64,000 nucleotides of DNA from an uncultured Gammaproteobacteria bacterium (GCA_964533715.1 CAZHNI010000001.1:5514-69513); one strand, 5' to 3'. Numbered from the stretch's first letter, positions 25,647 to 47,300 are shown. The notes: generated by a model from the sequence alone, not told the origin. Numbers and translations are program-made.

Positions 25647-26510
25647 ATGTATACGTCCGTAACAATTAAACAGTTGCACCACGCACTCCAAGCGCTTGAC
25701 CCATCAGCGCTTGTTTTGTTAGGGGGCAGTTATTTATATGACGAAGCGGTAGAGGAAAGTGATGTTGATTTTTATTTTATAATACCTTCATGGAAGATAT
25801 TTTTTTTAAAGAAATTTAAAAAAATAATTCAGAATTTAAAACAGCGTTTTTCTGGCGTGAATTTTAGTGTTATGATTGTGCCACAATGGCTTCGACGGCA
25901 TGGATACTATATTTATGGAAAAGATGTCAGCGGTAAAATTCATACATGGGAACTCCCAATTTCAATATTAATAAGGAATTGTCTTAAGCTGGCCTATTTT
26001 AATTATTTACGGTCAATGGTGGAACCAAAAAATAAAGAGAGAAATGTTCAGAAAGTAAAAAAGCAACTTGCGGTAGCAGAACTTGCCGCGCAAGGTAAGG
26101 TAGATTTTAAAGAACCAATTTTTTCGTGGAAATATATCAAACGACATTTGGTCTCGTCTGTCATTTCGACCGTAGCGACCAAAGGGAGCGAAGTGGAGAA
26201 ATCGCTTGACTGCAGTGACTCACAGATCAAGGGATTCCTCGACTGCGGCTTCGCCTTCGCTCGGAATGACAACGCGAATGACGGTCTACGGCAAGTGCAT
26301 GGACAATTCCTCCCATATTTTAATTTTTCCTTGTCAAATTATTTGCTTTACAATATTCGTTTTTTGCTCAAAGGCAACCCCTTGTTTCTATTTAGTAATC
26401 CTGATAAAATGGTGTTAGAAAAAATGGTTATTGGAATTGAGCACGAAGAAAAACTCCCAGAATTGTATAAAGAAATAAAAAGAATTGTTTTTCCTGTTAT
26501 TATTTTTTAA
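25647..26510 (+). CDS. nucleotidyltransferase-domain protein with an in-frame palindromic-element insertion
   Basis: LLGGSYLYDEAVEESDVDFYFI matches the pol-beta superfamily GS...DxD signature. Codons ~172-209 are encoded by repeat copy 26159-26271. Confidence 0.4.
   Translation: MYTSVTIKQLHHALQALDPSALVLLGGSYLYDEAVEESDVDFYFIIPSWKIFFLKKFKKIIQNLKQRFSGVNFSVMIVPQWLRRHGYYIYGKDVSGKIHTWELPISILIRNCLKLAYFNYLRSMVEPKNKERNVQKVKKQLAVAELAAQGKVDFKEPIFSWKYIKRHLVSSVISTVATKGSEVEKSLDCSDSQIKGFLDCGFAFARNDNANDGLRQVHGQFLPYFNFSLSNYLLYNIRFLLKGNPLFLFSNPDKMVLEKMVIGIEHEEKLPELYKEIKRIVFPVIIF
26159..26271. repeat. palindromic MITE-like element copy (TIR TGTCATTTCGACCG...CGCTCGGAATGACA), in frame in the nucleotidyltransferase gene
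   Basis: Terminal inverted repeats and internal sub-palindromes are shared with the other copies. Confidence 0.7.
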
Positions 26511-26556
26511 GGCCGCGCCTCAAAGGACGTTGCGCGGCATGATTTCGTCAAATCAT

Positions 26557-27144
26557 ATGTCCAAAGAAATAGTTTTTGACATTGAAACACAAAACACCTT
26601 CGCCGATGTTAATAATGACTTTAAGAAACTTAAAATTTCTTGTGTTTCCATTTATCAATATGAAACAGATTCTTATAGCAGTTTTGAGGAGCATGAATTA
26701 AAAAATTTATGGCCGATTTTAGAAAAAGCTGATCGGCTTATTGGGTTTAATAGCGGGCATTTTGATTTGCCGGTTATGAATAACTATTATTTGGGAGATT
26801 TATTAGCGTTTCCACATTTAGATATCATGGATAGTGTTAAGGCGGCGCTCGGGTTTCGTCTTAAGTTGGATGATATTGCCAAAGCTACCCTTGATAATAT
26901 AGAAAAAAGTGCGGAAGGTCTGCAAGCTATACGTTGGTGGAAAGAAGGTAAAATTGATGAAATAAAAAAATATTGTGAGCAGGATGTGCGGGTTACCAAA
27001 GAAGTGTATGATTTTGGGAGAAAAAATAGGCAGCTATTTTATAAGTCTTTAACCGGTGAGGTATTACCCTTTAGAGTAGATTTTGCGTTATTGAAGACCC
27101 AGGCGGACAAAGGAAAAAATATTAATTTGACGTTGCCATTTTAA
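26557..27144 (+). CDS. DEDDy-type 3'-5' exonuclease (DnaQ-like fold)
   Basis: Exo I FDIET, Exo II GFNSGHFDLPVM, Exo III YCEQD (Y-x3-D). Start set at ATG 26557 (MSKEIVFDIET). Confidence 0.55.
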   Translation: MSKEIVFDIETQNTFADVNNDFKKLKISCVSIYQYETDSYSSFEEHELKNLWPILEKADRLIGFNSGHFDLPVMNNYYLGDLLAFPHLDIMDSVKAALGFRLKLDDIAKATLDNIEKSAEGLQAIRWWKEGKIDEIKKYCEQDVRVTKEVYDFGRKNRQLFYKSLTGEVLPFRVDFALLKTQADKGKNINLTLPF

Positions 27145-27150
27145 ATCAGT

Positions 27151-28326
27151 ATGGCTCAGCCTAAAAAAATTATATATCTCGATCACGCTGCAGCGACACC
27201 AATTGATCCACGCGTCAGAAAAGCCATGGAGCCATTTTTGAATTCAGAATTTGCCAATCCGTCTGCTTTGTATACGGCGGCGTTGGTAGCTCGAAAAGCT
27301 ATTGAGTTAAGCAGAAAGAAAGTGGCGAACGTACTTCATACGCAACCTGATTGTGTAGTTTTTACAAATGGGGGAACAGAATCTAACAATTTGGCTCTTT
27401 TGGGAACAGCCCGGGCACACGAAAAACAGGGAAAACATATTATTATTTCCGCGGTAGAGCATAGTGCCATGTTGGAACCAGCCAAAGCCTTAGAAAAAAA
27501 AGGCTGGAAAATTTCGGTGATTCCGGTAGATAAAAATGGTGTCGTAAATGTGAATGCGGTAGTTGGCGCAATAAGACCAGATACCGTGTTCGTGAGTATT
27601 ATATATGCCAATAATGAAATTGGCTCAATTCAGCCAATAAGTGAAATTGGTCGTGCTATTGTGCGATATCGAAAAGAGCATAAAACAAATTTCCCTTATT
27701 TTCATACCGACGCTGCTCAAGCGGCTGGATTTCTTGTTCTTGATGTAGAAAAATTACATGTGGATTTTATGTCTTTTAATGGTGGAAAAATGTATGGGCC
27801 ACGGGGGAGTGGTGTATTGTATCTCCGACGTGGAATTACCGTAGAACCACTTATGTATGGCGGATCACAAGAGCACGCTCTTCGCCCAGGAACGGAAAAT
27901 ACGGCGGCGATAGTTGGTTTTGCCACCGCTCTCCAAATTGCACAGAAAAATATGGGTAAAGAGTCGGAGAAATTGCAGGAGCTATCGAGTTTGTTGTGGA
28001 ATAAGCTAAAAAATAAAGCGCCAGGCCTACAACTGAATGGCCCGGAAATTGGGCCAAATCGTTTATCAAATAATCTTAATATATTTTTTCCCGGTGTTGA
28101 TGGTGAAACTTTTGTAATTTATCTTAGTGAAGAGGGTGTGTATGTTTCTACTGGTTCATCGTGTAATTATGAAACCGCCTCGTTGTCGCCTGTGCTCAAG
28201 GCGATTGGTCTACCAGACGCAACCATAAATGGTTCTGTTAGATTCAGTTTGGGGCGAAGCACAACCAAAAAAGATATTAATTTTGTTGTTACGACAATTA
28301 TAAACAGCATTAAAATATTGACGTAA
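27151..28326 (+). CDS. iscS: cysteine desulfurase (class V aminotransferase, NifS/IscS family)
   Basis: PLP-Lys region SFNGGKMYGPRGSGVL, active-site Cys loop STGSSC, and overall NifS length. Confidence 0.75.
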   Translation: MAQPKKIIYLDHAAATPIDPRVRKAMEPFLNSEFANPSALYTAALVARKAIELSRKKVANVLHTQPDCVVFTNGGTESNNLALLGTARAHEKQGKHIIISAVEHSAMLEPAKALEKKGWKISVIPVDKNGVVNVNAVVGAIRPDTVFVSIIYANNEIGSIQPISEIGRAIVRYRKEHKTNFPYFHTDAAQAAGFLVLDVEKLHVDFMSFNGGKMYGPRGSGVLYLRRGITVEPLMYGGSQEHALRPGTENTAAIVGFATALQIAQKNMGKESEKLQELSSLLWNKLKNKAPGLQLNGPEIGPNRLSNNLNIFFPGVDGETFVIYLSEEGVYVSTGSSCNYETASLSPVLKAIGLPDATINGSVRFSLGRSTTKKDINFVVTTIINSIKILT

Positions 28327-28379
28327 TTGATTTTTGCTTTTTTCTTATTTTTTTGTTAGTATGAAGCCATACCATTTGT

Positions 28380-29045
28380 ATGGCTTTTTTGTATATTGTT
28401 GCTACACCAATTGGCAATTTTGATGATATTACCCTTCGCGCTCTTGAAACGCTCAAAAGCGTTGATGTTGTGTTATGCGAAGATACCCGGGTAACTAAAA
28501 ATTTGCTTGACCACTATAAAATACACAAGCCGACGCTCAGCTATCACCATCATAGTGATGCCAGGAAAGTTAATGAGATTATTAGTTTATTGGAAAGTGG
28601 TAAAAATTTAGCTTTAGTGACCGACGCCGGCACACCAGGGATTTCTGACCCTGGGAATGAGCTTGTTTCACAAATAACAAATAACAAAGAACAAATAACA
28701 ATTGTTCCTATACCAGGCCCATCAGCAGTAGTTGCCGCTCTCAGTATTTCCGGCTTTCCTACCGACAAATTTTTATTTTTAGGATTTCCTCCCCATAAAA
28801 ATAAACGGCAAAAATTTTTTAAAGAAGTTGCCGCGGCCGAGCACACGGTGGTGTTTTACGAATCCGGTCATCGTATTATAAAATGTTTGGGGGAATTAAA
28901 AGAAGTGCTGGATATAAAAAGACAGATAGTTGTCTGTCGTGAACTCACCAAAAAGTTTGAGACGATTTATCGTGGGACAGTTGAAGAAATCTCTAAGCAA
29001 AATATAGATGAAAGAGGGGAGTTTGTGGTGGTTATAAATGCTTAA
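28380..29045 (+). CDS. rsmI: 16S rRNA (cytidine1402-2'-O)-methyltransferase RsmI
   Basis: Tetrapyrrole-methylase fold: LYIVATPIGN...DIT.RAL..LK.VDVVLCEDTRVT..LL, and VTDAGTPGISDPG. Confidence 0.75.
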   Translation: MAFLYIVATPIGNFDDITLRALETLKSVDVVLCEDTRVTKNLLDHYKIHKPTLSYHHHSDARKVNEIISLLESGKNLALVTDAGTPGISDPGNELVSQITNNKEQITIVPIPGPSAVVAALSISGFPTDKFLFLGFPPHKNKRQKFFKEVAAAEHTVVFYESGHRIIKCLGELKEVLDIKRQIVVCRELTKKFETIYRGTVEEISKQNIDERGEFVVVINA

Positions 29046-29103
29046 ATTGCTGTATCGTTAAATTGTTTCTTTAGTTATCCAACAATTTAGCCATTTAATA
29101 ATT

Positions 29104-30639
29104 ATGTCAAAATCAATATTTTTTATAACTACCGCTATACCATACGCCAACGCGGAACCGCACATGGGGCACGCGATTGAATTTTTGTATGCCGATATAA
29201 TGGCGCGTTATCAGCGTTTGCTTGGCAATGAGGTGTATTTTTTAAGTGGCACCGATGAACATGGCCAAAAAATGCTCAAAACTGCCAAAGAAGCCGGTAG
29301 ACCCGTGGAAGAGTTTGCTGCTGAGAAATCGGCAACTTTTAACAATCTTTTGGATCAATGGAATATTTCTAACGACGATTTTATTCGTACCACAGAAAAA
29401 CGTCATCTTGACGGCGCCAGCAAATTTTGGAGCACGGTGATGGAAAATGGACATATTTATAAAAAGAAATATACTGGTTTGTATTGTTACGGTTGTGAAT
29501 CTTTTAAAACTGAAAAAGATTTGGTGGAAGGTAAATGCCCTCTGCACAATCGTGTGCCCGATGAGGTCTCAGAAGAAAATTACTTTTTTAAGTTATCTAA
29601 CTTTCAGGAACAACTTGAATTTTTGTTTGAAAAAAATTCAGATTTTGTACACCCCAAAGGTCGCATGAACGAAATGCTAAACGTGCTTAAAGAGGGAGTG
29701 GAAGATATTAGTATTTCTCGTACTGCTTCCAAAATGCCATGGGGTATACCAGTGCCAGGTGATAATAGCCAAGTAATGTATGTGTGGTTTGATGCTCTTA
29801 CAAATTATATTACTGCTTTGGGCTATGCCAGTGATGAAAAATTATTAAAAAAGTATTGGCCCGCTACGCACGTTATTGGCAAAGATATTAATCGATTTCA
29901 TTCCCTATTATGGCCAGCCATGCTTATGGCAGCAGGCCTAGAGGTACCAAAACAAATTGCGGTGCACGGTTTTGTATATGCTGGTGATGGCCAAAAAATG
30001 AGTAAGACCTTGGGTAATGTTATTGATCCCGCGGAAATTATAAATGAGTTTCCTCTTGAGTCCGTGCGATATTTTCTCGCTCGTGAAATTCCTTTTGATG
30101 GTGATGGTAATTTTTCTCGCGAAGCATTAAGCACACGTTATAATGCGGATTTGGCCAATGGACTTGGCAACCTCACTAATCGCATTTTAACCATGGTGGA
30201 AAAATATAGCGATGGGGCTGTGCCAAAAGTCACTACGGTTGATAATGATTTTATTAAGTCGTTGGAAAAAATTTGGGTTGAGTATGACGCCGCTATAAAA
30301 GCTTGGCAATTTAACCGTGCTTTGGAAAGTGTGTGGAAATTTGTGGCTATGTGCGACCAGACAATTTCCGACAAACAACCGTGGGCGATGGTAAAGATGG
30401 GCAAGACAACGGAGGTAAACGACCTGCTCTATCATTTATGCGAGGGGTTACGCCACATCGGCATCATGATTTGGCCAGTAATGCCAGAAACAGCCGAAAA
30501 AATTATTTTGCAACTTGGTTTGTCCTTAGAAAAAGAATTTGCCAAGCCGCTTGTCGAGCTTCAACAGTGGGTAGAGCTGACTGTGGGAAACAAAATAGAT
30601 AAAGGTCAACCGCTTTTTCCGCGCTTAAGTGATAAGTAG
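29104..30639 (+). CDS. metG: methionyl-tRNA synthetase
   Basis: Class I HMGH (PHMGHAIE) and KMSKT motifs, a CxxC...CPLH zinc knuckle, and an anticodon-binding helical domain. Confidence 0.85.
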   Translation: MSKSIFFITTAIPYANAEPHMGHAIEFLYADIMARYQRLLGNEVYFLSGTDEHGQKMLKTAKEAGRPVEEFAAEKSATFNNLLDQWNISNDDFIRTTEKRHLDGASKFWSTVMENGHIYKKKYTGLYCYGCESFKTEKDLVEGKCPLHNRVPDEVSEENYFFKLSNFQEQLEFLFEKNSDFVHPKGRMNEMLNVLKEGVEDISISRTASKMPWGIPVPGDNSQVMYVWFDALTNYITALGYASDEKLLKKYWPATHVIGKDINRFHSLLWPAMLMAAGLEVPKQIAVHGFVYAGDGQKMSKTLGNVIDPAEIINEFPLESVRYFLAREIPFDGDGNFSREALSTRYNADLANGLGNLTNRILTMVEKYSDGAVPKVTTVDNDFIKSLEKIWVEYDAAIKAWQFNRALESVWKFVAMCDQTISDKQPWAMVKMGKTTEVNDLLYHLCEGLRHIGIMIWPVMPETAEKIILQLGLSLEKEFAKPLVELQQWVELTVGNKIDKGQPLFPRLSDK

Positions 30640-30674
30640 TTTATAATTATGCCTATGAATAGTATTTATTTAAT

Positions 30675-31202
30675 ATGTCATTTTTTGATGTAATTCTTAT
30701 TTGTATAATAGTTGGATTTGGTTTTTTTGGATTTTGGTTTGGCTTCGTGCATACCATCGGTTCACTTATTGGCACCGTACTCGGTGTTTATTTGGCTACG
30801 CGTTGGTACTACCCTCTATCTGGTTGGATAATACACTTTACAGGTTGGACAGGAAATTTTATAAAAGTAATTGTATTTATTTTGGTTTTTGTAATAATCA
30901 ATCGAATTGTTGGTATTATTTTCTTTTTAATTGACAAAGCGCTATCTATTTTTACTCGTCTACCTTTTATACACGCGTTTGATCGTTTTTTGGGTTTTGC
31001 GTTTGGCATTGGTGAGGGTATTATTGTAATTGGTGTAGTGTTATATTTTATAAATAAATTTCCCTTAACGCCAGCTTTTATGACCGATCTGGCTCAGTCG
31101 AGCGTCGCTTTGTTGTGCGTGCATGTTGCTTCGTTGTTTCTCCCGCTTATTCCATTAGCTTTAAAACAAATTTCTGATTCGGTAAGCAACTTTGGTTTTT
31201 AG
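30675..31202 (+). CDS. cvpA: CvpA-family membrane protein
   Basis: Four TM helices with the FFDVILICIIVGFGFFGFWFG start typical of CvpA. Confidence 0.5.
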   Translation: MSFFDVILICIIVGFGFFGFWFGFVHTIGSLIGTVLGVYLATRWYYPLSGWIIHFTGWTGNFIKVIVFILVFVIINRIVGIIFFLIDKALSIFTRLPFIHAFDRFLGFAFGIGEGIIVIGVVLYFINKFPLTPAFMTDLAQSSVALLCVHVASLFLPLIPLALKQISDSVSNFGF

Positions 31203-31214
31203 AATTTTGTAATT

Positions 31215-32165
31215 ATGATGATAGATACACACGCCCATGCGCACTTTAACGCCTATAAGGATGATATGGACGAAGTAATAGAGCGGAGCCTTGCTAGGGG
31301 TGCTGTTATTAATTTAGTTGGGACCCAAGCAGATACGAGCAAGCGGGCGGTTGAAGTCGCCGAAAAATATGACGGAGTATACGCCACAATTGGTCTTCAT
31401 CCAGAACATCTTTTTTCCAAGTGGGTTGACGAAGAAGAAACCTCTTTTCAATCGCGGGAAGAAAGTTTTGATTATGAGTACTACAAAAGTTTGGCGGTAA
31501 TGCCCAAAGTTATTGGCATAGGGGAGTGTGGGTTAGATTTTTACCGTATTCCCGAAGGTATGACCAAAGAGGCTATGCTCCCTAAACAGGCAGAAGTTTT
31601 TAGGCAGCATATTAATTTATCTCAAGAAACAAACTTGCCGCTGATAATTCATTGTCGTGAGGCGCATGAGGAGATGATTGCCATCCTGAACACGTTCGTT
31701 TCGCTCAGTGTAAACTCCGCGGAGCGTGGTGAAGGACCCCCTCAAAAGCAAGGGGATTATTCGGTCGTCCCGAGCAATTCGGGACTCCCTCAGAATGACA
31801 ATGCAAACAAAAAATTACGTGGCACGATGCACTGCTACACCAGCAGCTGGATTAATGCCCAAAAATATTTAGAAATGGGTTTTTACATTGGTTTTACCGG
31901 CGTTATTACATTTCCTCCCCAAAAAGCGAACCCGCAAGCCCAGGCGGATTTATTGGAAGTTGTTCGTAAGATGCCAGAGGACAGGATACTTTTGGAAACC
32001 GATTGCCCTTATTTATCACCAATTCCATATAGAGGAAAGCGAGGCGAGCCTTGGATGATTGAGGCAACAGCAGCAAAAATAGCGGAACTCCGCGGAATAA
32101 GTTTGGAAGAAACCCTAAGCGTAACAACAAAAAATGCGCGGAACCTTTTTCAGAAAATGGTTTAG
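31215..32165 (+). CDS. tatD: TatD-family metal-dependent hydrolase with an in-frame palindromic-element insertion
   Basis: IDTHAHAH, GECGLDFY, IIHCREAHEE, HCYTSSW and ETDCPYL motifs. About 35 extra residues (VSLSVNSAERGEGPPQKQGDYSVVPSNSGLPQNDNA) between the third and fourth metal-binding motifs are encoded by repeat copy 31697-31798. Confidence 0.7.
   Translation: MMIDTHAHAHFNAYKDDMDEVIERSLARGAVINLVGTQADTSKRAVEVAEKYDGVYATIGLHPEHLFSKWVDEEETSFQSREESFDYEYYKSLAVMPKVIGIGECGLDFYRIPEGMTKEAMLPKQAEVFRQHINLSQETNLPLIIHCREAHEEMIAILNTFVSLSVNSAERGEGPPQKQGDYSVVPSNSGLPQNDNANKKLRGTMHCYTSSWINAQKYLEMGFYIGFTGVITFPPQKANPQAQADLLEVVRKMPEDRILLETDCPYLSPIPYRGKRGEPWMIEATAAKIAELRGISLEETLSVTTKNARNLFQKMV
31697..31798. 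repeat. degenerate palindromic element copy, in frame in tatD
   Basis: Right TIR CCCTCAGAATGACA, left arm degenerate (CGTTTCGCTCAGTG), inner palindrome GTCCCGAGcaatTCGGGAC. Confidence 0.55.
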
Positions 32166-32198
32166 TTAAGTTATTCACATTTTCTATTAAAAATTCTC

Positions 32199-32227
32199 TT
32201 GACCTTTTGTGTTAATTCGTTTATACT
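32199..32227 (+). promoter_or_regulatory. sigma-70-like promoter TTGACC-N17-TATACT upstream of the atp operon
   Basis: Near-consensus -35 and -10 with 17-nt spacer, located in the tatD-atpI spacer. Confidence 0.45.
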
Positions 32228-32243
32228 AATGTCGTCCTTTTTT

Positions 32244-32501
32244 ATGGAGAATAAGCCCCAAAAGACGTCTGATCGAGAGTATTATATATTTGCACTTCGC
32301 ATCATGGGCGATTTTGGGGCCACTATTGCGGCACCAGTCATAATTTTTGTACTTATTGGGCAATATTTTGATAATCGTTACGGTCATGCACCAATTTTTA
32401 CAGTAATTGGGTTTCTGTTGGCAGCATTTGGTTCTGGTAGCATTATCTACAAAAAGGCAAAAAAATACGGAAAAGAATTTCAACAGATGAATAAAAAGTA
32501 G
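32244..32501 (+). CDS. small two-TM membrane protein (AtpI/AtpZ-like, first gene of the atp operon)
   Basis: Position immediately upstream of atpB plus two hydrophobic helices. Start set downstream of the predicted promoter (tracked ORF 32199.. overlaps the promoter). Confidence 0.35.
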   Translation: MENKPQKTSDREYYIFALRIMGDFGATIAAPVIIFVLIGQYFDNRYGHAPIFTVIGFLLAAFGSGSIIYKKAKKYGKEFQQMNKK

Positions 32502-32503
32502 TT

Positions 32504-33286: not shown

Positions 33287-33323
33287 AACATAAAAACACA
33301 AGAACATTAAAACACAATAAGCC

Positions 33324-33356
33324 GTTTTAATGTTTTAATGTTTTAATGTTTTAATG
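33324..33356. repeat. tandem octamer (TTTTAATG)x4 preceded by an 11-bp perfect hairpin in the atpB-atpE spacer
   Basis: AACATTAAAAC...GTTTTAATGTT stem, then GTTTTAATG repeated four times. Confidence 0.7.
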
Positions 33357-33650: not shown

Positions 33651-33657
33651 CTCAACT

Positions 33658-33701: not shown

Positions 33702-33824
33702 TGTCATTCTGAGCCTGCCTCCTGCATGCGCAGGTATGGCGCAGACAGGTGAAATGAAGAATCTTCCTATTATGAAGATCCTTCCCCAAAGGGGTCCCTT
33801 TGGGACGCTCTGCTCAGGATGACA
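33702..33824. repeat. palindromic element copy, intergenic atpE-atpF
   Basis: TIR TGTCATTCTGAGC...GCTCAGGATGACA. Carries the CCTGCCTCCTGCATGCGCAGG and GAAGAATCTTCCTATTATGAAGATCCTTC modules. Confidence 0.75.
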
Positions 33825-33835
33825 AAATAGAATCT

Positions 33836-34776: not shown

Positions 34777-34884
34777 TGTCATTGCGAGGAGCAAAGCGAC
34801 GAAGCAATCCCCCTGAGTTCAGTGCTCCTGAAAACAAGGGGATCGCCACGTCAGCCGGTGCGAACCGGCTTCCTCGCGATGATA
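34777..34884. repeat. palindromic element copy, intergenic atpH-atpA
   Basis: TIR TGTCATTGCGAGG...CCTCGCGATGATA; shares the GCAATCCCCCTGA core with the rlmN copy. Confidence 0.7.
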
Positions 34885-36716: not shown

Positions 36717-37739
36717 ATGGCAGTAAGTACCAAAACAATTAAACGCCGCATCAAATCAATTTCCAACACCAAAAAAATTACTAAGGCCATGGAGATGATT
36801 AGTGCGGTAAAAATGCGCCGAGCGGTAGCCAATGTTTTGGCTACCCGAAATTATGCTAGCCTGGCTTGGGAAATGCTTAAAGAAATTTCCGAGTACACGC
36901 ACGATGGCCACCATGCACTCTTGCAAAAAAGGCCTGTTAAAAAAATCGGTCTCATTTTAATTACCAGTAACCGAGGGTTGGCTGGCGGTTTTAGCAGCCG
37001 GTTATTGCAGGAAGTAGACAGCTACATAAAAAAAATCACTCATCAAACTGTCATTCCGACGACACGTGCGCTCCGCTCAGTGCAGGCTCCAGAGGAATCT
37101 CTGGCTCATTCGAATGACGGACAGAGATCCCTCGTCGGCGCGAGCCTCACTCGGGATGACAAAGTGCAAATTGGCATTGAAGCCGACATCATTCTTACTG
37201 GTAAGCGCGGCAAAAAAATTTATCATCGTTTTGGGCACACTGTGGTGGCCGAATTTGATAAAGTAGATCTTACCACCAGAATTGAAGAAATTTTACCCAT
37301 GGCCCAGTTGGCGGTAAAAGAATTTGTTGCCGGAACATACGACCAAATTGTAGTGGCGTACATGCATTTTAAATCCGCAATTGAACAAGTGGCCACAGTA
37401 AAACAAATTTTGCCGCTTACGAAAGATTCAATTAAAGAACTGGCCGCCAAAGAAGCTGATGACACTGAAGAAATAGAAGAGAGCACATTTTTGTTTGAGC
37501 CAAACCCGGCGCTGGTGCTTGATGTACTCTTGCCACGTTTGGTTGAAATGCAAATGTATCAGGCAATTTTGGAATCGGACGCCTCCGAGCACAGCGCTCG
37601 CATGATGGCTATGCGAAACGCCAGTGATTCGGCCAGCGATATGATTAAAGAGTTGCAAAACAGCTTTAACAAAGCACGCCAAGCAGCTATTACCCAAGAA
37701 ATTAGTGAAATTGTGGGTGGTGCAGCGGCCCTGGAGTAA
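36717..37739 (+). CDS. atpG: F0F1 ATP synthase subunit gamma with an in-frame palindromic-element insertion
   Basis: Conserved N-terminus (TKTIKRRIKSISNTKKITKAMEMISAVKMRRA) and C-terminus (MMAMRNASDSA...ITQEISEIVGGAAALE). About 38 extra residues (TVIPTTRALRSV...TRDDK) are encoded by repeat copy 37049-37161. Confidence 0.85.
   Translation: MAVSTKTIKRRIKSISNTKKITKAMEMISAVKMRRAVANVLATRNYASLAWEMLKEISEYTHDGHHALLQKRPVKKIGLILITSNRGLAGGFSSRLLQEVDSYIKKITHQTVIPTTRALRSVQAPEESLAHSNDGQRSLVGASLTRDDKVQIGIEADIILTGKRGKKIYHRFGHTVVAEFDKVDLTTRIEEILPMAQLAVKEFVAGTYDQIVVAYMHFKSAIEQVATVKQILPLTKDSIKELAAKEADDTEEIEESTFLFEPNPALVLDVLLPRLVEMQMYQAILESDASEHSARMMAMRNASDSASDMIKELQNSFNKARQAAITQEISEIVGGAAALE
37049..37161. repeat. 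palindromic element copy, in frame in atpG
   Basis: TIR TGTCATTCCGACG...CTCGGGATGACA; inner GAGGAATCTCTGG...GGACAGAGATCC module. Confidence 0.75.
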
Positions 37740-37772: not shown

Positions 37773-38159
37773 ATGGAGGAAAGATATCGTGATTTTACAG
37801 AGCTTGAAGTTTGGCAAAAAGCGCATGAACTAAGATTAAAAGTACGGATTCTTTGCAAATTTCTACCATCTGAAGAAAAATATGGCCTGATCTCACAAAT
37901 TTTAAGATCGTCCGCTTCAGTCGGTGCTAATATAGCTGAAGGTCATGGTAGATTTCACTATCAAGAAAATATCCAATATTGCAGACAAGCAAGAGGATCG
38001 CTAGATGAAACTCGTGATCATCTAATCTATATACGTGACGCTGATTTAATAAGAAAAGTGAGTAGTTTGGAATATTTAGTTAATCTATGTTTACAAATAA
38101 AGGCTTTGTTAAATGGTTATATCGGTTATTTAAAAAAATGTAAACAAGGGCAAGACTAA
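37773..38159 (+). CDS. four-helix-bundle protein (23S rRNA intervening-sequence protein family)
   Basis: Characteristic LEVWQKAHEL...SASVGANIAEGHGR...DETRDHL pattern of the four-helix-bundle/IVS protein family; AT-richer than its neighbours. Confidence 0.6.
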   Translation: MEERYRDFTELEVWQKAHELRLKVRILCKFLPSEEKYGLISQILRSSASVGANIAEGHGRFHYQENIQYCRQARGSLDETRDHLIYIRDADLIRKVSSLEYLVNLCLQIKALLNGYIGYLKKCKQGQD

Positions 38160-38193: not shown

Positions 38194-39573
<1,380 letters not shown>

Positions 39574-39638
39574 CAACATACAAGATACATGGAATAAAAT
39601 ATAATTTGTATATTTTTCCATGTATATTGAATATTTTT

Positions 39639-40049: not shown

Positions 40050-40138
40050 AATAACATTAACAAAATCGATCGCCCTAAACGATCGGTTTTTGTTTAAGTG
40101 TAACATTTTGGCTAATTTTGCGTCTTCTATACAAAGCA

Positions 40139-40162
40139 CCCCTGATTCCAGGGGCATTTTTT
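40139..40162 (+). terminator. rho-independent terminator of the atp operon
   Basis: CCCCTG-attc-CAGGGG hairpin followed by CATTTTTTG. Confidence 0.6.
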
Positions 40163-40167
40163 GTCTT

Positions 40168-40224
40168 TATTCCCCCTCCTCGACTCCTCCCTTATGTTTA
40201 GGGGAGGGATGTGGGCGGGGAATA
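40168..40224. repeat. GC-rich nested palindrome (second element class) downstream of the atp terminator
   Basis: TATTCCCC-CTCCTCG-ACTCCTCCC...GGGGAGGG...GGGGAATA nested inverted repeats; related in style to the helicase insert 44899-44975. Confidence 0.45.
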
Positions 40225-40235
40225 GAGTATAAATT

Positions 40236-41999
40236 ATGAAATATAACACAAGATTAACGTTAAAAATTTATTGGAGCGAAGCACGTCGACACTGGCTTTC
40301 GATGATTATTATTGTTATCGGAGTGGTGGGCGGTTCTTTTGCTGGAATTATTATCCCCCTTTATTTTAAGGCATTTTTTGATATTCTAGCGAGCTCAAAT
40401 TCATCAGCTGCTTCGGTCTCGGCTCTTTTTGGAGTGCTTGTTGCCATTGCCATGGTTGAGGCTGCTCGTTGGCTGTGTTGGCGCACCGCTGGTTTTTTTA
40501 ATAATTATTTTCAACCAAAAGTAATGGCAGCTTTGGCTAATCGATGTTTTGCATATTTGCACAAGCACTCTTTTGGGTACTTTAACAGCAATTTTGTTGG
40601 CTCTTTGGTTAAGCGTGTTAATTGGTTTACGCGCGCCTTCGAAAGTGTCGCCGATAAAATTACCTGGACATTCATTAACTTGTTTGTAGATTTAGGCGTG
40701 GTGGTGTTTATTTTATTTCGAAAAGATTTTCGTCTAGGCCTCGGCAGTTTAGCTTGGATTATTTTATTCTTATCGGTAAACTGGATTTTTACTTCATACA
40801 AATTACGGTTTGATATTAAACGCAACGAAGCCGAAACAAAAGCCACCGGTGTTTTAGCCGATACCATTACTAATAACAGTAATGTGAAGTTGTTTGTTGG
40901 GTATGGGCGCGAACGCCAAAGGTTTGCTGAGGCTATGGAAAAGGTACGCTATCTTCGCCGTTTCACTTGGAACCTCGACAGTGTATTTGAAGCTGTGCAA
41001 GGTTTTTTGGTAGTTTTGTTTGAGCTTGGTATTTTTTACTTAGCCACTATTCTTTGGAAAGAAGGACATTTAACGGTAGGTGACTTTGTCCTGCTTCAAT
41101 CATTCCTTATAATAATTTTTGATAAGGTGTGGGATTTTGGGAAGATCGTGCGTAATTTGTATACAGATTTATCGGATGCCGAAGAGATGACTGTCATATT
41201 AAATACCCCGCACGAAATTCAGGATGCTCCGGGAGCCAAAAAACTGCGCGTAGAAGCGGGTCTTATTCAGTTCAAGAATGTCGATTTTTATTATCACGAG
41301 ACGCGCAAAATTTTCCGAAAATTAAATTTGGAAATTGCCGGCAGTGAAAAAATTGCCTTAGTTGGCCCATCGGGGGCAGGTAAATCTACCATTATCAAAT
41401 TGCTTCTTCGCATGCATGATGTTTCGGGTGGGAGTATTTATATTGATAACCAAAAAGTATCGGCTGTAACGCAAGAAAGTTTGTGGGGAGCCATTAGTAT
41501 GGTGCCGCAGGATCCAATTTTGTTTCACCGCACGCTACTAGAAAATATTCGCTACGGCAAACCAGAGGCTACGGATGAAGAGGTGATTGCGGCCGCCAAA
41601 CTCGCACATTGTCATGAATTCATTTCGGAATTTCCAGACAAATATGAAACTTATGTGGGCGAACGCGGTGTCAAATTATCTGGCGGTGAACGTCAGCGTG
41701 TAGCTATTGCCCGGGCAATTTTACGCAACGCTCCAATACTGGTACTCGATGAAGCCACCTCGAGTCTTGATTCAGAATCCGAACATCTTATTCAAGATGC
41801 GTTGGCCAAACTCATGGAGAACAAAACCGTTATTGTAATCGCTCACCGTCTGTCTACTATAATGAAAATGGACAGAATTTTAGTGGTAGACCACGGCGAG
41901 GTGGTAGAAAGCGGTACCCACCAAGAGCTTCTTAAACTCAAATCCGGCCTTTATCATCAGCTGTGGAAACGACAGGCAGGTGGGTTTATACAGGACTAG
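40236..41999 (+). CDS. ABC transporter, fused permease/ATP-binding (MsbA-like exporter)
   Basis: Six-TM N-terminal domain, Walker A GPSGAGKST, signature LSGGERQRVAIARA, Walker B ILVLDEATS. Confidence 0.75.
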   Translation: MKYNTRLTLKIYWSEARRHWLSMIIIVIGVVGGSFAGIIIPLYFKAFFDILASSNSSAASVSALFGVLVAIAMVEAARWLCWRTAGFFNNYFQPKVMAALANRCFAYLHKHSFGYFNSNFVGSLVKRVNWFTRAFESVADKITWTFINLFVDLGVVVFILFRKDFRLGLGSLAWIILFLSVNWIFTSYKLRFDIKRNEAETKATGVLADTITNNSNVKLFVGYGRERQRFAEAMEKVRYLRRFTWNLDSVFEAVQGFLVVLFELGIFYLATILWKEGHLTVGDFVLLQSFLIIIFDKVWDFGKIVRNLYTDLSDAEEMTVILNTPHEIQDAPGAKKLRVEAGLIQFKNVDFYYHETRKIFRKLNLEIAGSEKIALVGPSGAGKSTIIKLLLRMHDVSGGSIYIDNQKVSAVTQESLWGAISMVPQDPILFHRTLLENIRYGKPEATDEEVIAAAKLAHCHEFISEFPDKYETYVGERGVKLSGGERQRVAIARAILRNAPILVLDEATSSLDSESEHLIQDALAKLMENKTVIVIAHRLSTIMKMDRILVVDHGEVVESGTHQELLKLKSGLYHQLWKRQAGGFIQD

Positions 42000-42005
42000 G
42001 GTAAT

Positions 42006-42070
42006 TGTCATTCCGAGCGAGGCCAAAGGCCGGCGAGAAATCTCTGTCTCAATCAAATGGACAGAGATTT
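42006..42070. repeat. truncated palindromic element copy (left TIR plus AAATCTCTGTCtcaatcaaatgGACAGAGATTT module)
   Basis: TGTCATTCCGAGCGAGGCC left end identical to the helicase copies; right TIR missing. Confidence 0.65.
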
Positions 42071-42075
42071 TTTTC

Positions 42076-42104
42076 TGGACAAATGTTTATATTTGTGCTA
42101 AAAT
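42076..42104 (+). promoter_or_regulatory. sigma-70-like promoter TGGACA-N17-TAAAAT upstream of rlmN
   Basis: Lies between two palindromic-element copies (42006-42070 and 42123-42187). Confidence 0.4.
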
Positions 42105-42122
42105 GAGCAAAAATTATCGAAT

Positions 42123-42187
42123 TGTCATTCTGAGTGAAACGAAGAATCCTCCTATTATGAAGATCCTTCGCTCCGCTCAGGATGACA
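42123..42187. repeat. short palindromic element copy immediately upstream of, and overlapping, the rlmN start region
   Basis: TGTCATTCTGAGTG...CGCTCAGGATGACA with the GAAGAATCCTCCTATTATGAAGATCCTTC module. Confidence 0.75.
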
Positions 42188-42199
42188 GACGATTATCAC

Positions 42200-43411
42200 A
42201 TGACTAAAATTGTCAAAACAATAGAATCCATTCTAGCTAATGAACCCGCCTTCCGCATTAAGCAAATTGAAAAGGCGTGGTTTGATGTGTCCTTAAATTC
42301 GTACGATGAAATTACTACCTTGCCAAAAGAGCTTCGCGAAAAATTAAAAGATATTCCCTGGTTAAGTTTGGAAGTCCACACCGAATTAAAAAGCAAAATG
42401 GATAACACGCGCAAATACCTTTTTAAACTAGGGGATGGGAATTTGATTGAGATGGTCTTGATGGGTCGTATGTCATTGCGAGCCCCGAAGGGGCGCGGCA
42501 ATCCCCCTGATTTGATCGAGGACGTTGACGAGGAGATTGCTTCGTCAGTCGCTGCGACGCTCCTTTCTCGCAATGACACATCGGCGATTGGCCGCGACAC
42601 CAGTGGCGATCGTTACACCATCTGTATTTCATCTCAAGCCGGGTGCCCCATGCGGTGTGCGTTTTGCGCCACGAGCAAAAGCGGTTTTAAGCGTAATCTT
42701 ACCGCCGAAGAAATTATAGATCAATATCGTTTCGCCCAGCGACTACTGGCCAAAGAAAATAATCGGGTGAATAATATTGTGCTCATGGGCCAAGGGGAAC
42801 CGCTGGTAAACTATGAGAACGTAAAAAAAGCGATCAATACTATTTTAAAAAACAGCGACATCGGCTCTACCAAAATAACTCTATCCACTGTTGGTTATGT
42901 GCCCGCCATGGAAAAAATGATAACCGACACCGACTTTCCGCCGGTGCGTTTTGCCTTGTCACTTCACAGCGCTATAGAAGAATCGCGTAAAAAAATTATT
43001 CCAACGCACAAACCAGGGTTTTTGGAATGGCTCGTGAAGTGGGGGAATGCCTACCACGAAAAATTTGGCAACCGCACCCATTTTATTGGTTTTGAGTACA
43101 TTATGTTAAGTGGGGTAAATGATGATGAAGCACATTTGAAGGCACTGATAAAATTGTGCAAACGTTTTCCTATCGTTCGCGTTAACCTCATTCCGTACAA
43201 CACCACCAACGATGCCGGTGAGGTTGATGAAATTAATAAATTGGAAGAACAAATGGGCTCTAATTATCGCATTTTTACCCGCACCCCGCACGAGCTTATT
43301 GAACATTGGCACGAGAGTCTTATGGATGCGGGAATTACGTCCACTATCCGTTATTCGCAGGGGCAGGATATTGCGGCGGCGTGTGGGCAACTCCGGAATA
43401 AAGAAAAATAG
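42200..43411 (+). CDS. rlmN: radical SAM rRNA/tRNA adenosine-C2 methyltransferase RlmN with an in-frame palindromic-element insertion
   Basis: Radical SAM CxxxCxxC (CPMRCAFC), GQGEPL, and a C-terminal catalytic Cys region. About 36 extra residues (MSLRAPKGRGNPPDLIEDVDEEIASSVAATLLSRND) upstream of the cluster are encoded by repeat copy 42471-42578. Start set at ATG 42200, because tracked start 42182 lies inside a repeat. Confidence 0.75.
   Translation: MTKIVKTIESILANEPAFRIKQIEKAWFDVSLNSYDEITTLPKELREKLKDIPWLSLEVHTELKSKMDNTRKYLFKLGDGNLIEMVLMGRMSLRAPKGRGNPPDLIEDVDEEIASSVAATLLSRNDTSAIGRDTSGDRYTICISSQAGCPMRCAFCATSKSGFKRNLTAEEIIDQYRFAQRLLAKENNRVNNIVLMGQGEPLVNYENVKKAINTILKNSDIGSTKITLSTVGYVPAMEKMITDTDFPPVRFALSLHSAIEESRKKIIPTHKPGFLEWLVKWGNAYHEKFGNRTHFIGFEYIMLSGVNDDEAHLKALIKLCKRFPIVRVNLIPYNTTNDAGEVDEINKLEEQMGSNYRIFTRTPHELIEHWHESLMDAGITSTIRYSQGQDIAAACGQLRNKEK
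42471..42578. repeat. palindromic element copy, in frame in rlmN (108 bp, 36 codons)
   Basis: TIR TGTCATTGCGAGC...CTCGCAATGACA. Confidence 0.75.
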
Positions 43412-43446
43412 ATTTTAGGCACTAACTAATCTAACTTTATTATAGT

Positions 43447-43950
43447 ATGTTTGAATTAATAATAGATATAACCAACAAATTATTTCCTTTATCTGGCATC
43501 GTTGCTTTGCTCTCTACAACAGTTGGTATTTGGTTGGCGTTGGCTGAGTATAGGTTAAAATTAAGAGCAGAATCGAGAATTGCCGACAGTGCCAAAATTG
43601 AAGCTGATATCAATTTAATTAAACATTTTACTGAATTGATGAATGTTGCCCACGCTAGAAGCGGTTATTCAGTTTCTGAAACCGTGATTGAAAAAATGTT
43701 TGAAAATGGATTTTTTACTGATGATGATAAAAATAATTTGGAAATTTTAAATCAAAAACTAGAAGATGCTGCTATTTTGACATTGCCTGTAGGTCTTGCC
43801 GCACAGGATGCAGCTATGGCTGCAATTTCTGTTTTGGCAAAAAAACACGATATTTTAAAAAAACCGGCGCTTCAAGCATTAGAATCAATGAAGTTTTTTA
43901 AAAAAGAACTGTCCGAAAAATACATCACGGAGATTAATGCCAGCAACTAA
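43447..43950 (+). CDS. hypothetical protein with N-terminal TM helix
   Basis: ORF with coding-like composition; no recognised family. Confidence 0.3.
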   Translation: MFELIIDITNKLFPLSGIVALLSTTVGIWLALAEYRLKLRAESRIADSAKIEADINLIKHFTELMNVAHARSGYSVSETVIEKMFENGFFTDDDKNNLEILNQKLEDAAILTLPVGLAAQDAAMAAISVLAKKHDILKKPALQALESMKFFKKELSEKYITEINASN

Positions 43951-43996
43951 ATCAATCGCTTGACACAAATTCCGCCAAAGTTTAAACTATAGATAT

Positions 43997-44257
43997 ATGA
44001 ACGAAGATAAAATTATCATGGAAATAGTCGAACTCAAAACTGATGTAACAGAAATTAAGGAAGCAATGAAAACTACTTTAGTGACTAAAGCAGATCTCGA
44101 ACCAATTGTGCGTACCCAAGATGAAATTTTGGTTATTCTAAAACGCCTTGATAATGAACGTCTTGTTAATAATCATAGGATTACAAATCTAGAAGATAGG
44201 GACGAAAAACACAACAAGGACATAACTCAAATCAAAGTTAATCTAAAAATGGCCTAA
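43997..44257 (+). CDS. hypothetical small charged protein
   Basis: ORF only; no recognised family. Confidence 0.25.
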   Translation: MNEDKIIMEIVELKTDVTEIKEAMKTTLVTKADLEPIVRTQDEILVILKRLDNERLVNNHRITNLEDRDEKHNKDITQIKVNLKMA

Positions 44258-44306
44258 ATTATAGCGTTTTTTGCGATTTGTAAAGCTTACCAAATTACGA
44301 TATACT

Positions 44307-44331
44307 AGTACCACTAAATTGGTACTTTTTT
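44307..44331 (+). terminator. rho-independent terminator
   Basis: AGTACCA-ctaaat-TGGTACT hairpin followed by TTTTTT. Confidence 0.55.
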
Positions 44332-44340
44332 AATTGCGGA

Positions 44341-44370
44341 CAGTGATTCTTCACTGCGCTCAGAATGACA
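44341..44370. repeat. partial palindromic element (right end CGCTCAGAATGACA plus CAGTGAttcttCACTG hairpin) at the helicase start
   Basis: Right TIR matches the family consensus. Confidence 0.45.
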
Positions 44371-44376
44371 GAAAAT

Positions 44377-47300
44377 ATGGGAAAATACTCTTTAAACAAG
44401 GCGCAACGTGAAGCCGTGGAGTATACCAGCGGCCCGCTTTTGATTGTGGCTGGGGCGGGGACGGGAAAGACGACGGTGATTACAAGTAAAATTTGTCGGT
44501 TGATTGAGGAAAAACTCGCCAAACCCGAGGAAATTTTGGCATTAACGTTTACCGAAAAAGCGGCGGCGGAAATGCAGGATAGGGTAGATGAGATAACCAA
44601 TATTGGCTACGCCGATCTCCACATTTCTACCTTCCACGCCTTTTGTCAAAAAATTCTGGAGCGGCATGCCATTGATATCGGCCTCTCCAATTCGTTTAAA
44701 CTCCTCACCGACACGGCGGGCTGGGTTTTGCTCCACAAAAATTTGGATAAATTTAATTTGGATTACTACCGACCGCTCGGCAACCCTACTAAACACATTC
44801 ACGAATTTTTAAAACATTTTTCTAAGTGCAAAGATGAATTAATTACACCGCAGGAATATTTGGAGTATGCGGAAGGTTTAAAATTGAACAATGGACGAGA
44901 CCCCACCCTGCCCTCCCCTTTGCGAAGGAGAGGGGACAAAACCCCCTCCTCTGCAGAGGAGGGGGTAGGGGGAGATCTCGCGGAGGTCGAGCGGCTTACG
45001 GAAATTGCCAACGCGTATCACACGTATAATCAACTGCTTTTGGACAACGCGCTATTTGATTTTGGCGATTTGCTTTTTTATACCGTCAAATTATTTCGCG
45101 AACGGCCGAATGTGCTCAAAATGTTCCAGAATAAATATAAATATATTTTGGTGGATGAATTTCAGGATGTGAACTATTCGCAGTATGAATTAATTAAACT
45201 CCTGGCGGACGCCTCATTGTCATTTCGACCGGAGCCCCAAAGGGGCGAAGTGGAGAAATCCCTGTCTCAATCACGAACGGACAGAGATTCCCTGCCTGCA
45301 CCATGCCTGCGCATGCAGGAGGCAGGCTCGTCGGCCTCCGGCCTCGCTCGGAATGACAATATTGTTGGTCCCAACCTCACCGTGGTAGGGGATGATGACC
45401 AAAGTATTTATGCCTTTCGCGGCGCCAGTGTGGCGAATATTCTAAGGTTTAAAGATGATTATCCAACAGCCAAAGAAGTGGTGCTATCGGAAAATTTTCG
45501 TTCCGGCCAAAAGATTTTGGATGTGGCGTATGAGTCTATTCAGAACAATAACCCGGATCGGTTGGAAGTGAAGTTAAAGATAGACAAGCGACTAAAGGCC
45601 AAAAGGCCATCTGTCATTTCGACGACGAAGGAGAAATCTCTGGCTCACCAAACGATGAATAGAGATTCCCTGCCTGCACCATGCCTGCGCATGCAGGAGG
45701 CAGGCTCGTCGGCCTCCGGCCTCGCTCGGAATGACAATGGGGATGGCGTGGTGATACATTTGCACAAACCAACCGTCGAAGACGAGGTAGCGGCTGTTTT
45801 GGACGAAATTACGCGTATTAAAACGGTTACCGAAGGCGTAACCTGGGATGATTTTGCTATTTTGGTTCGTGCCAACAATCACGCGGATGCGTTTATAAAC
45901 CAACTGCAAACACGAGGCATTCCATACGAATTTTTGGCTTCTAGCGGATTGTATCGTCAACCGATTATTTTGGATTGCATAAACTTTTTTAAACTCCTGA
46001 ATAATTATCACGAATCCAGCGCAATTTATCGACTGCTCTGTTTACCTTTTTTTGAATTTAGAGAAAATGATTTACAAAAAATTACCTTTAATGCCAAGCG
46101 CAAAAGTATTTCGTATTACGAAGCACTCAAACGCGCTCCCGAATTTGATGTGTCGCAAGCAGGGATTAGCGTGTGTGCTAAATTGGTGGAAGTAATTCAT
46201 GCCGGCCTCCAGAGTATGCGTTACGAAAAGCCATCGGTGGTGCTGTATTCATTTTTGGAAAATAGTGGTTACCTCAAATACTTAACACACCAGGAAAACG
46301 AAGGTAAGGGCGATGTGATTCGCCAAATTCATTATTTAAAACAGTTTTTTGATTACATTGCGCAGTATGAATCGGTAACGCCTGAGGCGCATGTGGTCGG
46401 GTTTATAGAGCATTTTATGATGGTAGTGGACGCGGGTGATAAGGGAAGCCTCTACCAGCCGAGCGACACACCGGATTCCGTAAATATTTTGACGGTGCAC
46501 GCCTCCAAGGGCTTGGAATTTCGCTATGTGTTTGTAGTGAATTTGGTAGAAGATCGGTTTCCATCACGCAGTCGCAGTGACGCGCTGGAAATTCCGCTTG
46601 AACTCGTGAAAGAGCAATTGCCGGAAGGCGATAGCCATATTCAAGAAGAACGACGATTGTTTTATGTGGCCATGACGCGCGCCAAGGAACGTTTGTATTT
46701 TACCAGCGCGAGCGATTATGGTGGTACGCGCACAAAAAAGATTAGCCGATTTTTGGCGGAGTTAGATTTTGGTTCTGTCATTCTGAACGGAGCAAAGCGC
46801 AGTGAAGAATCCCTGTCTGCGCAGGCAGGTCTGTCTCAATCACCAACCGACGGACAGGGATCCTTCGCTTCGCTCAGGATGACAAAAAAAGTAAATGAAA
46901 TGAGTGAGCGAGTGTACGAAACGCCAAAAACTTTTTCATTCTCACAATTGCGATCGTACGAAACCTGTCCATATCAATACAAACTGGCGCATATTTTGCA
47001 TATCCCCATGAAGGGCAGTGCGAGTTTTAGTTTTGGTTCCAGCATGCACAACACACTCCAAGCGTTTTATGAACGGGTAATTGAGCTTAACAGTTCCAAA
47101 CAAGTCTCACTTTTTGACACACCCAAACCATCTGTCATCCCGAGCGTAGTCGAGGGATCCCTTTCGCCAACGTCAAGGGATTCCTCCACTCCGCTACGCT
47201 CCGGTCGGAATGACAAAGCGGTGAAAGTACCAGAATTTGAGGAGCTCTTAAAAATGTACGACGCTAAGTGGATTTCGGATTGGTTTAAGGATAAACGCCA

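Follow-up and report, generated by a model that had tools for sequence, protein, structure and literature searches.

REPINs, or BIMEs (bacterial interspersed mosaic elements), consist of two inverted REP (repetitive extragenic palindromic) hairpins and a spacer, which together form a hairpin of about 100 nt with an unpaired GTAG tag beside the stem. They leave no target-site duplication, are mobilised by a RAYT (REP-associated tyrosine transposase, of the Y1/HUH type), are essentially extragenic and have a species- or genus-specific sequence. REPINs/BIMEs and their RAYT transposases are said to have been treated by Nunvar 2010, Bertels and Rainey 2011 and Ton-Hoang 2012. CGTC-tagged REPs, in which the tag is often changed to TGTC and may also be CCTC, were described by Di Nocera et al. 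2013; their stems begin with A-T, T-A and have 8-9 continuous pairs, a 4-5-nt loop and a 3-nt unpaired tail with the consensus CCA, they are mostly arranged as head-to-head dimers able to form one long stem-loop, and no transposase is associated with them (PMC3733652). Some of their copies are intragenic and in frame, many in replication and repair genes including UvrD/Rep helicases, and the intragenic members in Rickettsia conorii, which encode the peptides CHSRESGNP, VIPAKAGI and SFPRKRES...DSRFRGND, were equated with the Rickettsia palindromic elements (RPEs) RPE-4 and RPE-6 (PMC3733652). RPE-1 and other long RPEs are, according to the passages of PMC10969869 that deal with them (after Ogata et al. 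2000, 2002), palindromic selfish DNA of ~100-150 bp that occupies in-frame positions in numerous unrelated housekeeping genes of an organism with a reduced genome, with inserts predicted to be compatible with the protein fold. [quoted passage not shown] Here we describe 13 copies of a palindromic element in a 64 kb stretch of bacterial DNA (CAZHNI010000001.1, 5514-69513; the window), from an organism which the names of its atpG homologues place in Candidatus Magasanikbacteria (Patescibacteria). The explanation which accounts best for the whole, and which we consider likely, is that these copies are a REP-type selfish DNA family and not a transposon with terminal inverted repeats.

The basic unit of the family is a hairpin of ~28 nt composed of an unpaired tag TGTC, a 5-bp stem ATTCY/RGAAT, a tandem G·A, the apex GCGNAGC and a short tail. 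An element consists of two such units, head to head around a variable middle hairpin, which gives a palindrome of 65-141 nt; solo and truncated units also occur. A canonical copy reads TGTC-ATTCY-GA-GCGNAGC-GA-RGAAT-C.., followed by the variable middle and the mirror image. An isolated arm is predicted to fold into this very hairpin. The unit has nine stacked positions, seven of them Watson-Crick pairs (5 + 2) broken by the tandem G·A, and a 3-nt GNA triloop within GCGNAGC. In 189 canonical arms stem positions 5 and 17 are occupied by T-A 146 times, by C-G 42 times, by T-G once and by C-A never. In the 73 distinct arms 98.6% of the cells are paired with 37 double-sided changes, which none of 500 shuffles equals; the information here comes from the three middle pairs alone, which do co-vary, as the outermost and the GC pairs were fixed by the regular expression used in arm selection. 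The A-T and T-A first pairs were imposed by the same expression, and their constancy in the alignment is no independent evidence, but they were seen also in arms found without that constraint. The two arms differ in 17 of the 22 elements in Magasanikbacteria loci (ATTCT, ATTCC, ATTGC, ATTTC, ATCCT, ATCCC and ATCGC being the variants), and 38 of these 44 arms have a perfect 5/5 internal complement, against ~3% by chance, with cross-arm matches of at most 4/5. Since differing arms each keep their own complement, it is the arm that evolves as a unit, and not the whole palindrome, and an element is made of two such units joined head to head.

The tag before the stem is TGTC in 72 of the 73 distinct arms and CGTC in one, and its columns 2-4 are invariant. 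The tail begins with C in at least 90%; most arms have CTC or CTG there, and a subset has CCA. The apex sequence GCGNAGC is an extraordinarily stable DNA mini-hairpin in which all four N are allowed, with stability A > G > C > T (PMC13037366); in the 189 arms this N is A in 90, C in 47, G in 39 and T in 13. The nature of the apex, a mini-hairpin known from DNA, suggests that the element is active as single-stranded DNA. In many arms the apex is swapped for other small hairpins or for a nested 36-nt palindrome. Two hybrid dimers with internally perfect units were noticed in other loci, one joining ATCCT/AGGAT with ATTTC/GAAAT (L121, 6496-6575) and one joining ATTCT/AGAAT with ATTCC/GGAAT (L091, 7489-7571).

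The end motif TGTCATTCYGAGCG, scanned in the window at up to 2 mismatches, has 19 matches where shuffles predict 0.50, and 0 of 100 shuffles reach 19. Eighteen of the matches lie inside 26159-47215, and the one at 16141 is probably due to chance. All 13 copies which the initial annotation had listed were found where it had placed them (Table 1), and BLAST aligns them to one another; they comprise 10 dimers, one dimer with a degenerate left unit, one truncated copy and one solo unit. The internal modules which they were said to share are real as well, the 36-nt palindrome CCTGCCTCCTGCATGCGCAGG... being present three times and the CTGTCTCA...GACAG middle hairpin in 42006, 45218, 46776 and relatives. 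A nhmmer profile of the arms gave no further significant copies in the other 43 kb of the window. The 13 elements thus occupy 21 kb, one third of the window (P = 1.5e-5 under uniform placement), for which local hopping or a regional property are possible reasons. As RNA the copies fold strongly, with energies of -24 to -63 kcal/mol and z-scores of -2 to -7.7. Rfam at gathering thresholds, applied to the window and 18 canonical loci, returned tRNAs only and no family matching the copies, and at relaxed E-values it returned generic hairpin (miRNA-precursor) noise only.

Table 1. Copies of the palindromic element in the window, the open reading frames (ORFs) which hold them, and other features nearby (aa, amino acids)
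Feature	Coordinates	Location or identity	Remarks
Dimer, 113 nt	26159-26271	In frame, nucleotidyltransferase-domain ORF, aa 171-209	..SVISTVATKG...FARNDN..; left unit ATTTC/GAAAT, right unit ATTCC/GGAAT
Copy with degenerate left unit	31697-31800	In frame, TatD, aa ~159-199	
Dimer	33702-33824	atpE-atpF spacer	Nested 36-nt palindrome at 33714-33749
Dimer	34777-34884	atpH-atpA spacer	Units ATTGC/GCAAT and ATCGC/GCGAT
Dimer	37049-37161	In frame, ATP synthase gamma (atpG), aa 111-149	
Truncated copy	42006-42070	Directly after ABC-transporter stop codon (41999)	Left unit and middle hairpin, then T-run
Minimal canonical dimer, 65 nt	42123-42187	Upstream of rlmN	Left unit ATTCT/AGAAT, right unit ATCCT/AGGAT
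Dimer	42471-42578	In frame, RlmN, aa 97-133, ahead of radical-SAM core	ATTGC/GCAAT units
Solo unit	44341-44370	Just upstream of helicase	Reverse complement TGTCATTCTGAGCGCAGTGAAGAATCA
Dimer, 141 nt	45218-45358	In frame, AddA-like helicase, between DEFQD and GDDDQSIY	Nested palindrome at 45291-45326
Dimer, 125 nt	45612-45736	In frame, helicase	Nested palindrome at 45669-45704
Dimer, 109 nt	46776-46884	In frame, helicase	..SVILNGAKRSEE...SLRMTK..
Dimer, 83 nt	47133-47215	In frame, helicase nuclease domain region	..SVIPSVVEG...SGRNDK..
Host ORF	25647-26510	Nucleotidyltransferase-domain protein	
Host ORF	31215-32165	TatD	
Host ORF	36717-37739	ATP synthase gamma	
Host ORF	42182-43411	RlmN-like radical-SAM enzyme	266 bits, just below the 290-bit cut-off
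Host ORF	44365-47790	UvrD/AddA-like helicase with PD-(D/E)XK nuclease domain	Four copies inside
23S_rRNA_IVP gene (PF05635)	37773-38159	Between atpG and atpD	Only in the window genome
GC-rich palindrome	~40160-40230	Intergenic, before ABC-transporter gene	
GC-rich palindrome	~44895-44980	In frame in helicase (RDPTLPSPLRRRGDKTPSSAEEGVGG)	Absent from all three orthologues
537-aa ORF	19900-21513	58% GC island, against ~40% elsewhere in the window	No match in Pfam or NCBIfam

Host ORFs were assigned with Pfam and NCBIfam. Eight copies are situated in genes (one each in TatD, atpG, RlmN and the nucleotidyltransferase-domain protein, four in the helicase) and five outside coding sequence (33702, 34777, 42006, 42123 and 44341), of which 42006 and 42123 both lie between the ABC-transporter gene and rlmN. 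The initial annotation had counted nine copies in coding sequences; eight are internal to real coding sequence, but 34777 is in the atpH-atpA spacer, because the true start of atpA is at ~34905. The hosts it named (atpG, rlmN, tatD and an AddA-like helicase) hold good, with the correction that the host of 26159 is the nucleotidyltransferase-domain protein and that atpG hosts 37049. In all eight internal copies the host frame is open through the element, as had been claimed; canonical copies are open in ~35% of frames, so that 8/8 would be expected by chance with a probability of ~2e-4. The copies had been described as read in two of six frames; as a palindrome has only three frames that differ, these are in fact two out of three, and the third frame is closed at the right end because of the TGA in GAATGACA. 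The recurring peptide ends noted before were recovered, SVI[PSL].. or [LM]S[FL]R.. on the left and ..ARNDN, ..RDDK or ..LRMT on the right, and the helicase sequence across the insert junctions includes ..KPSVIPSVVEGSLSPTSR...

Copies near gene starts affect annotation: comparison with three relatives showed that the long ORFs called for atpA, atpF, rlmN and the helicase run on at the 5' side into these elements, and that the extensions are spurious, as had been suspected. In atpF the ORF caller runs into copy 33702, the true start being at ~33836, and copy 34777 adds a spurious extension of 43 aa to atpA. The terminal ATGACA of copy 42123 provides a spurious start codon for rlmN at 42182, and the ATG of the solo unit 44341 one for the helicase at 44365. 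The ATG taken as the start of both genes is situated in the element end ..GAATGACA, and the same ATGACA scores as a -35-like hexamer. The elements account for oversized housekeeping proteins and wrong start codons in annotations of the candidate phyla radiation (CPR), and they will confound alignments, phylogenies and structure predictions of CPR genomes.

Compared with solved structures, the gamma subunit of the window has ~45 residues where homologues have ~5, and the insert splits both the Pfam and the PDB alignments; TatD has ~40 residues where its PDB homologue 2gzx_A has ~6. Most of the 120 closest atpG orthologues, ~298 residues long, are without an insert at the loop in question. In ~13 orthologues this loop is occupied by members of the family of copy 37049, and about six others have inserts there which are GC-rich and of another kind; a second loop of gamma orthologues is a further insertion hot spot. 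In the AlphaFold (AF2) model of the window gamma, which has a mean pLDDT (predicted local distance difference test) of 83, residues 110-150 between helix 92-109 and strand 155-161 have pLDDT values of 44-57 and are coil without secondary structure; by this prediction the atpG insert is disordered. In the protein database a profile built from the insert peptides, itself too short, had one match, with E = 0.11. The extra segments are inserted DNA, as initially proposed, being absent from solved homologues, from most of the 120 atpG orthologues and, variably, from three syntenic relatives. Homologous segments in orthologues had been named as what would speak for ancestral protein sequence, and some orthologues are indeed filled in the same loops; their inserts belong to different subfamilies or to an unrelated palindrome family, which therefore indicates repeated invasion and not ancestral protein sequence. 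The repeatedly invaded loops of F1 gamma, TatD, RlmN and superfamily 1 (SF1) helicases tolerate inserts of 30-50 residues.

These relatives, the syntenic Magasanikbacteria loci L121, L122 and L123, were compared with the window gene by gene; all of them have members of the family, though in part at other sites. The TatD loop is filled in the window, filled by a different subfamily in L121 and empty in L122 and L123, and the TP_methylase loop is empty in the window, filled by another palindrome family in L121 and filled in L122 and L123. At the position of helicase copy 45218, L121 and L122 are empty and L123 has an unrelated insert at the same point; copy 45612 has a filled counterpart in L122 (19098-19186) and empty ones in L121 and L123; 46776 and 47133 are empty in all three. 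A few loops, independently refilled, are what a strong survival filter on random insertions would leave, and targeted insertion into hot loops is possible. Copies 45218 and 45612, which are 394 nt apart in the same gene, have an identical 76-nt right half. Relative to its L122 orthologue, copy 45612 has an exact gain of 36 nt (12 codons) which is the nested palindrome, with no junction duplication or at most one ambiguous base. If the nested palindrome is left out, the element common to the window and L122 is 90% identical, against 57-67% for the flanking coding DNA and 64% for the proteins. The copies shared with L122 are either young, or homogenised by conversion from a conserved master, or constrained as DNA.

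The 36-nt gain lies in the loop of the unit, beside the RGAAT half-stem. The same 36-nt palindrome, CCTGCCTCCTGCATGCGCAGGCATGGTGCAGGCAGG, is nested in three copies of the window and may be a mobile module in its own right; its first 26 nt had no exact match in the viral scan. The Magasanikbacteria-type middle hairpin found no match in the metagenome scan. A gene of the family PF05635 to which the 23S_rRNA_IVP gene between atpG and atpD belongs is present elsewhere in L121, and L122 and L123 have none at the atpG-atpD position.

When both perfect ends were sought in one genome per species, at least 120 loci were found, and canonical copies are present in at least 12 phyla, so the family is not lineage-specific. 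Among the matches listed are Acidobacteriota (the most numerous), Verrucomicrobiota, Chloroflexota, Bacteroidota, Gemmatimonadota, Armatimonadota, Nitrospirota, Planctomycetota, Desulfobacterota, Pseudomonadota, Bacillota and one contig labelled Patescibacteria. Canonical copies were also found in isolates (Hymenobacter lutimineralis and Luteimonas marina) and in 'chromosome: 1' records of up to 5.4 Mb. In the other phyla 9 of 115 canonical copies lie in long ORFs, six of them without a domain and three with recognisable domains which all start downstream of the element; these nine have the appearance of spacers ahead of genes, through which a frame stays open in DNA of high GC content. Of the loci seen, only those of Magasanikbacteria have genuine copies inside genes, a parallel to Rickettsia, and elsewhere the family appears intergenic. 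This contrast fits scarce spacer DNA or weak selection pushing elements into genes. In BLAST searches a canonical copy had no match in 72,556 plasmids and one weak match in phages, and a scan of viral contigs gave 3 matches only. In the contig DATHNC010000112.1 (L092), labelled Saccharimonadales, the element and its flanks closely resemble the acidobacterial loci L010 and L054, which suggests from sequence similarity that this contig is mis-binned.

For a REP-type selfish family we propose that new copies arise at the DNA level without target-site duplication, most likely by a hairpin on single-stranded DNA being cut and pasted or copied in trans, and that the reaction would be carried out by a RAYT-like protein of the HUH/Y1 type, specific for hairpins, or by an enzyme of the host. 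Copies would land nearby more often than far away. In the gene-dense Magasanikbacteria genome selection would remove every gene-breaking insertion, and the survivors would be copies in short spacers together with copies which are open in the host frame and situated in tolerant surface loops. The in-frame copies are probably translated as inserts of 28-47 residues which are predicted to be disordered. Several results weigh against this proposal. Nine RAYT/TIRYT queries (PMC3733652), run by tblastn against 123 loci, gave three weak Y1-like matches, none flanked by units, and no mobilising enzyme was found among the window ORFs scanned. The isolated arm folds weakly, at -1.9 to -2.7 kcal/mol and no better than shuffles, by a nearest-neighbour model which scores neither G·A pairs nor triloop bonuses. 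Element lengths in coding sequences are 0, 1 or 2 modulo 3, and therefore no single fixed insertion rule accounts for the preservation of frame. Nor does simple decay of junk DNA predict that the element in common with L122 should be better conserved than its flanks; selection acting on the DNA, or conversion or transfer that still goes on, may have a part in this. The metagenome scan gave no empty site for copy 45218, and the genomes compared offered no filled/empty polymorphism between near-identical strains, so that transposition itself is inferred.

The initial annotation had called the elements MITE-like with terminal inverted repeats. A classical MITE would be a deletion derivative of an insertion sequence whose inverted repeats are bound in trans by a DDE transposase and which moves by cut-and-paste, and the inverted TG...CA ends, the size of 65-141 nt and the copy number fit such an origin. 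However, at 126 junction pairs target-site duplications were not clearly above the shuffled expectation at lengths 1 to 8, and no direct repeats were seen around the window copies; at the junctions the palindrome tends to continue outward by a few subfamily-specific bases. An autonomous element is not apparent either, as no end pair is more than 250 nt apart and none encloses a gene among the 120 loci listed, and the plasmids gave no match. Arms with co-varying stems of their own, often of different subfamilies, are not expected of one transposase binding both ends. The label is therefore given up, each arm being a co-varying REP-like hairpin, and a MITE origin is in our opinion quite improbable. 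It is only slightly easier to see the copies as hairpins selected by the host for mRNA stability, processing, termination or priming, for example in setting the subunit ratios of the atp operon, which we regard as improbable. The folds are very stable, copies are situated in atp-operon spacers of all four related genomes, truncated copy 42006, which follows a stop codon, ends in a hairpin and a T-run, conservation of the element in common with L122 far exceeds that of its flanks, and GCGNAGC has been discussed as a possible primase recognition site at phage replication origins (PMC13037366). On the other hand, the presence of sites varies among close relatives, eight copies are in protein loops where a hairpin of -45 to -63 kcal/mol is more likely a burden, and no Rfam family matches. 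The sense strand folds no better than the antisense (summed -494 against -517 kcal/mol), and the excess of G·T over A·C in outer stems (14 against 7) could also be explained by a C-to-T mutation bias on the G-rich strand. Regulation may explain a secondary co-option of some copies, and not their origin or spread.

A broader host role is a rather unlikely alternative, namely that the element is a pan-bacterial single-stranded-DNA mini-hairpin without a transposase of its own and that a conserved host function recognising the TGTC-tagged GCGNAGC propagates, homogenises or retargets it, for example during lagging-strand synthesis, priming or repair. If true, this would account for the near-identity across at least 12 phyla and the presence in Patescibacteria, as well as for an element more conserved than its host genes (90% against 57-67%), the reuse of loops and the local clustering. 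That the extra residues are ancestral or functional protein segments with incidental DNA palindromy could be argued from the orthologues which have inserts at the same loop positions. We hold this to be very improbable, since the same DNA is found in spacers and in unrelated proteins, where it is read in two frames, since most atpG orthologues have no insert at the loop and a single loop may hold inserts of several subfamilies, or in some cases of a palindrome family without relation to this one, and since the atpG insert is predicted to be disordered and the DNA unit is nearly identical, and apparently intergenic, in at least 12 phyla. Suspicion could also fall on chimeric joins or on contaminants, because most carrier genomes are metagenome-assembled and at least one locus (L092) looks mis-binned. 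An artefact of assembly or binning is nevertheless scarcely credible: no internal copy interrupts its host frame, the Logan assembly of run SRR11567528, made separately, has a contig (L127) with 100% identity to the window over the atpG copy, and canonical copies exist in isolate genomes and 'chromosome: 1' records. Three further candidates were dropped, namely hairpin 'introns' removed from mRNA, as 8/8 copies in open frame argue for read-through, inteins, as the inserts are too short and without junction residues, and integron attC sites, as the R'/R'' boxes are wrong.

Two other features of the window deserve mention (Table 1). One is a second, unrelated family of GC-rich palindromes of the CCCCTCC...GGAGGGG type, present at two places; inserts which resemble it at the peptide level (SPYKGEDGGRGF and TPPVPSLKGGE) fill two loops of atpG orthologues. 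The other is the 537-aa ORF, which contains hydrophobic stretches close to its two ends, is rich in Cys/Gly in the C-terminal region and may have been acquired horizontally.

Returning to the selfish REP-type reading, it can be asked which of the known systems the family resembles most. The initial annotation did not recognise it as a described repeat. The exact sequence was indeed not found in the literature searched, where the DNA ends and the encoded peptides matched unrelated primers only, but the family is a close relative of the published CGTC/TGTC-tagged REPs. With these it has in common the TGTC tag, head-to-head dimers, in-frame intragenic copies and the lack of a transposase found with them; its stem begins with A-T, T-A also in arms selected without that pattern, and its tail mostly begins with C and is CCA in a subset. 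The window peptides CHSERSEES, VIPSEARN- and SFRAKRGI-...RFARNDN are near-identical to those of CGTC-1 in R. conorii, and the R. conorii CGTC-1 unit TGTCATTCCCGCGAAAGCGGGAATCCA, as inferred from the three published reading frames, matches the window unit at 25 of 29 positions, with the sister mini-hairpin GCGAAAGC at its apex. The unit of the window differs in having 5 Watson-Crick pairs, tandem G·A, 2 G-C pairs and a GNA triloop, the apex is often swapped and a structured middle hairpin stands between the units, and the hosts are Patescibacteria and at least 11 other phyla, several of them outside the five listed in 2013.

Elements of the REPIN/BIME type are likewise inverted hairpin dimers without target-site duplication, with an unpaired tetranucleotide by the stem and with subfamilies of each genome's own, but the tag here is TGTC and not GTAG, no RAYT gene flanked by units was found in 123 loci, copies are present in genes too, and the unit is nearly identical across phyla. 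Bacterial MITEs are also small, non-coding, palindromic and multi-copy, and some make in-frame fusions and fold in mRNA; their transposase-bound ends, target duplications and parent insertion sequence were not found for the window family in our limited sampling. Like the RPEs, it is inserted in frame in genes that function, at points where the protein fold can accommodate it. The analogy with the RPEs which had been drawn from the start is supported by the persistence in loops in frame and by the match of the unit to R. conorii CGTC-1, this being the inferred unit and not RPE consensus DNA; compared by description only, the long RPEs differ in that the window elements are dimers of a short REP-like unit and are not confined to one genus. 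The family is thus a further member of the REP/RPE class and not a separate class. It represents a second case of the Rickettsia phenomenon, selfish palindromes inside essential proteins, in an unrelated lineage with reduced genomes (Patescibacteria/CPR), and its hairpin unit is a concrete substrate for finding the enzyme that mobilises CGTC-type REPs.

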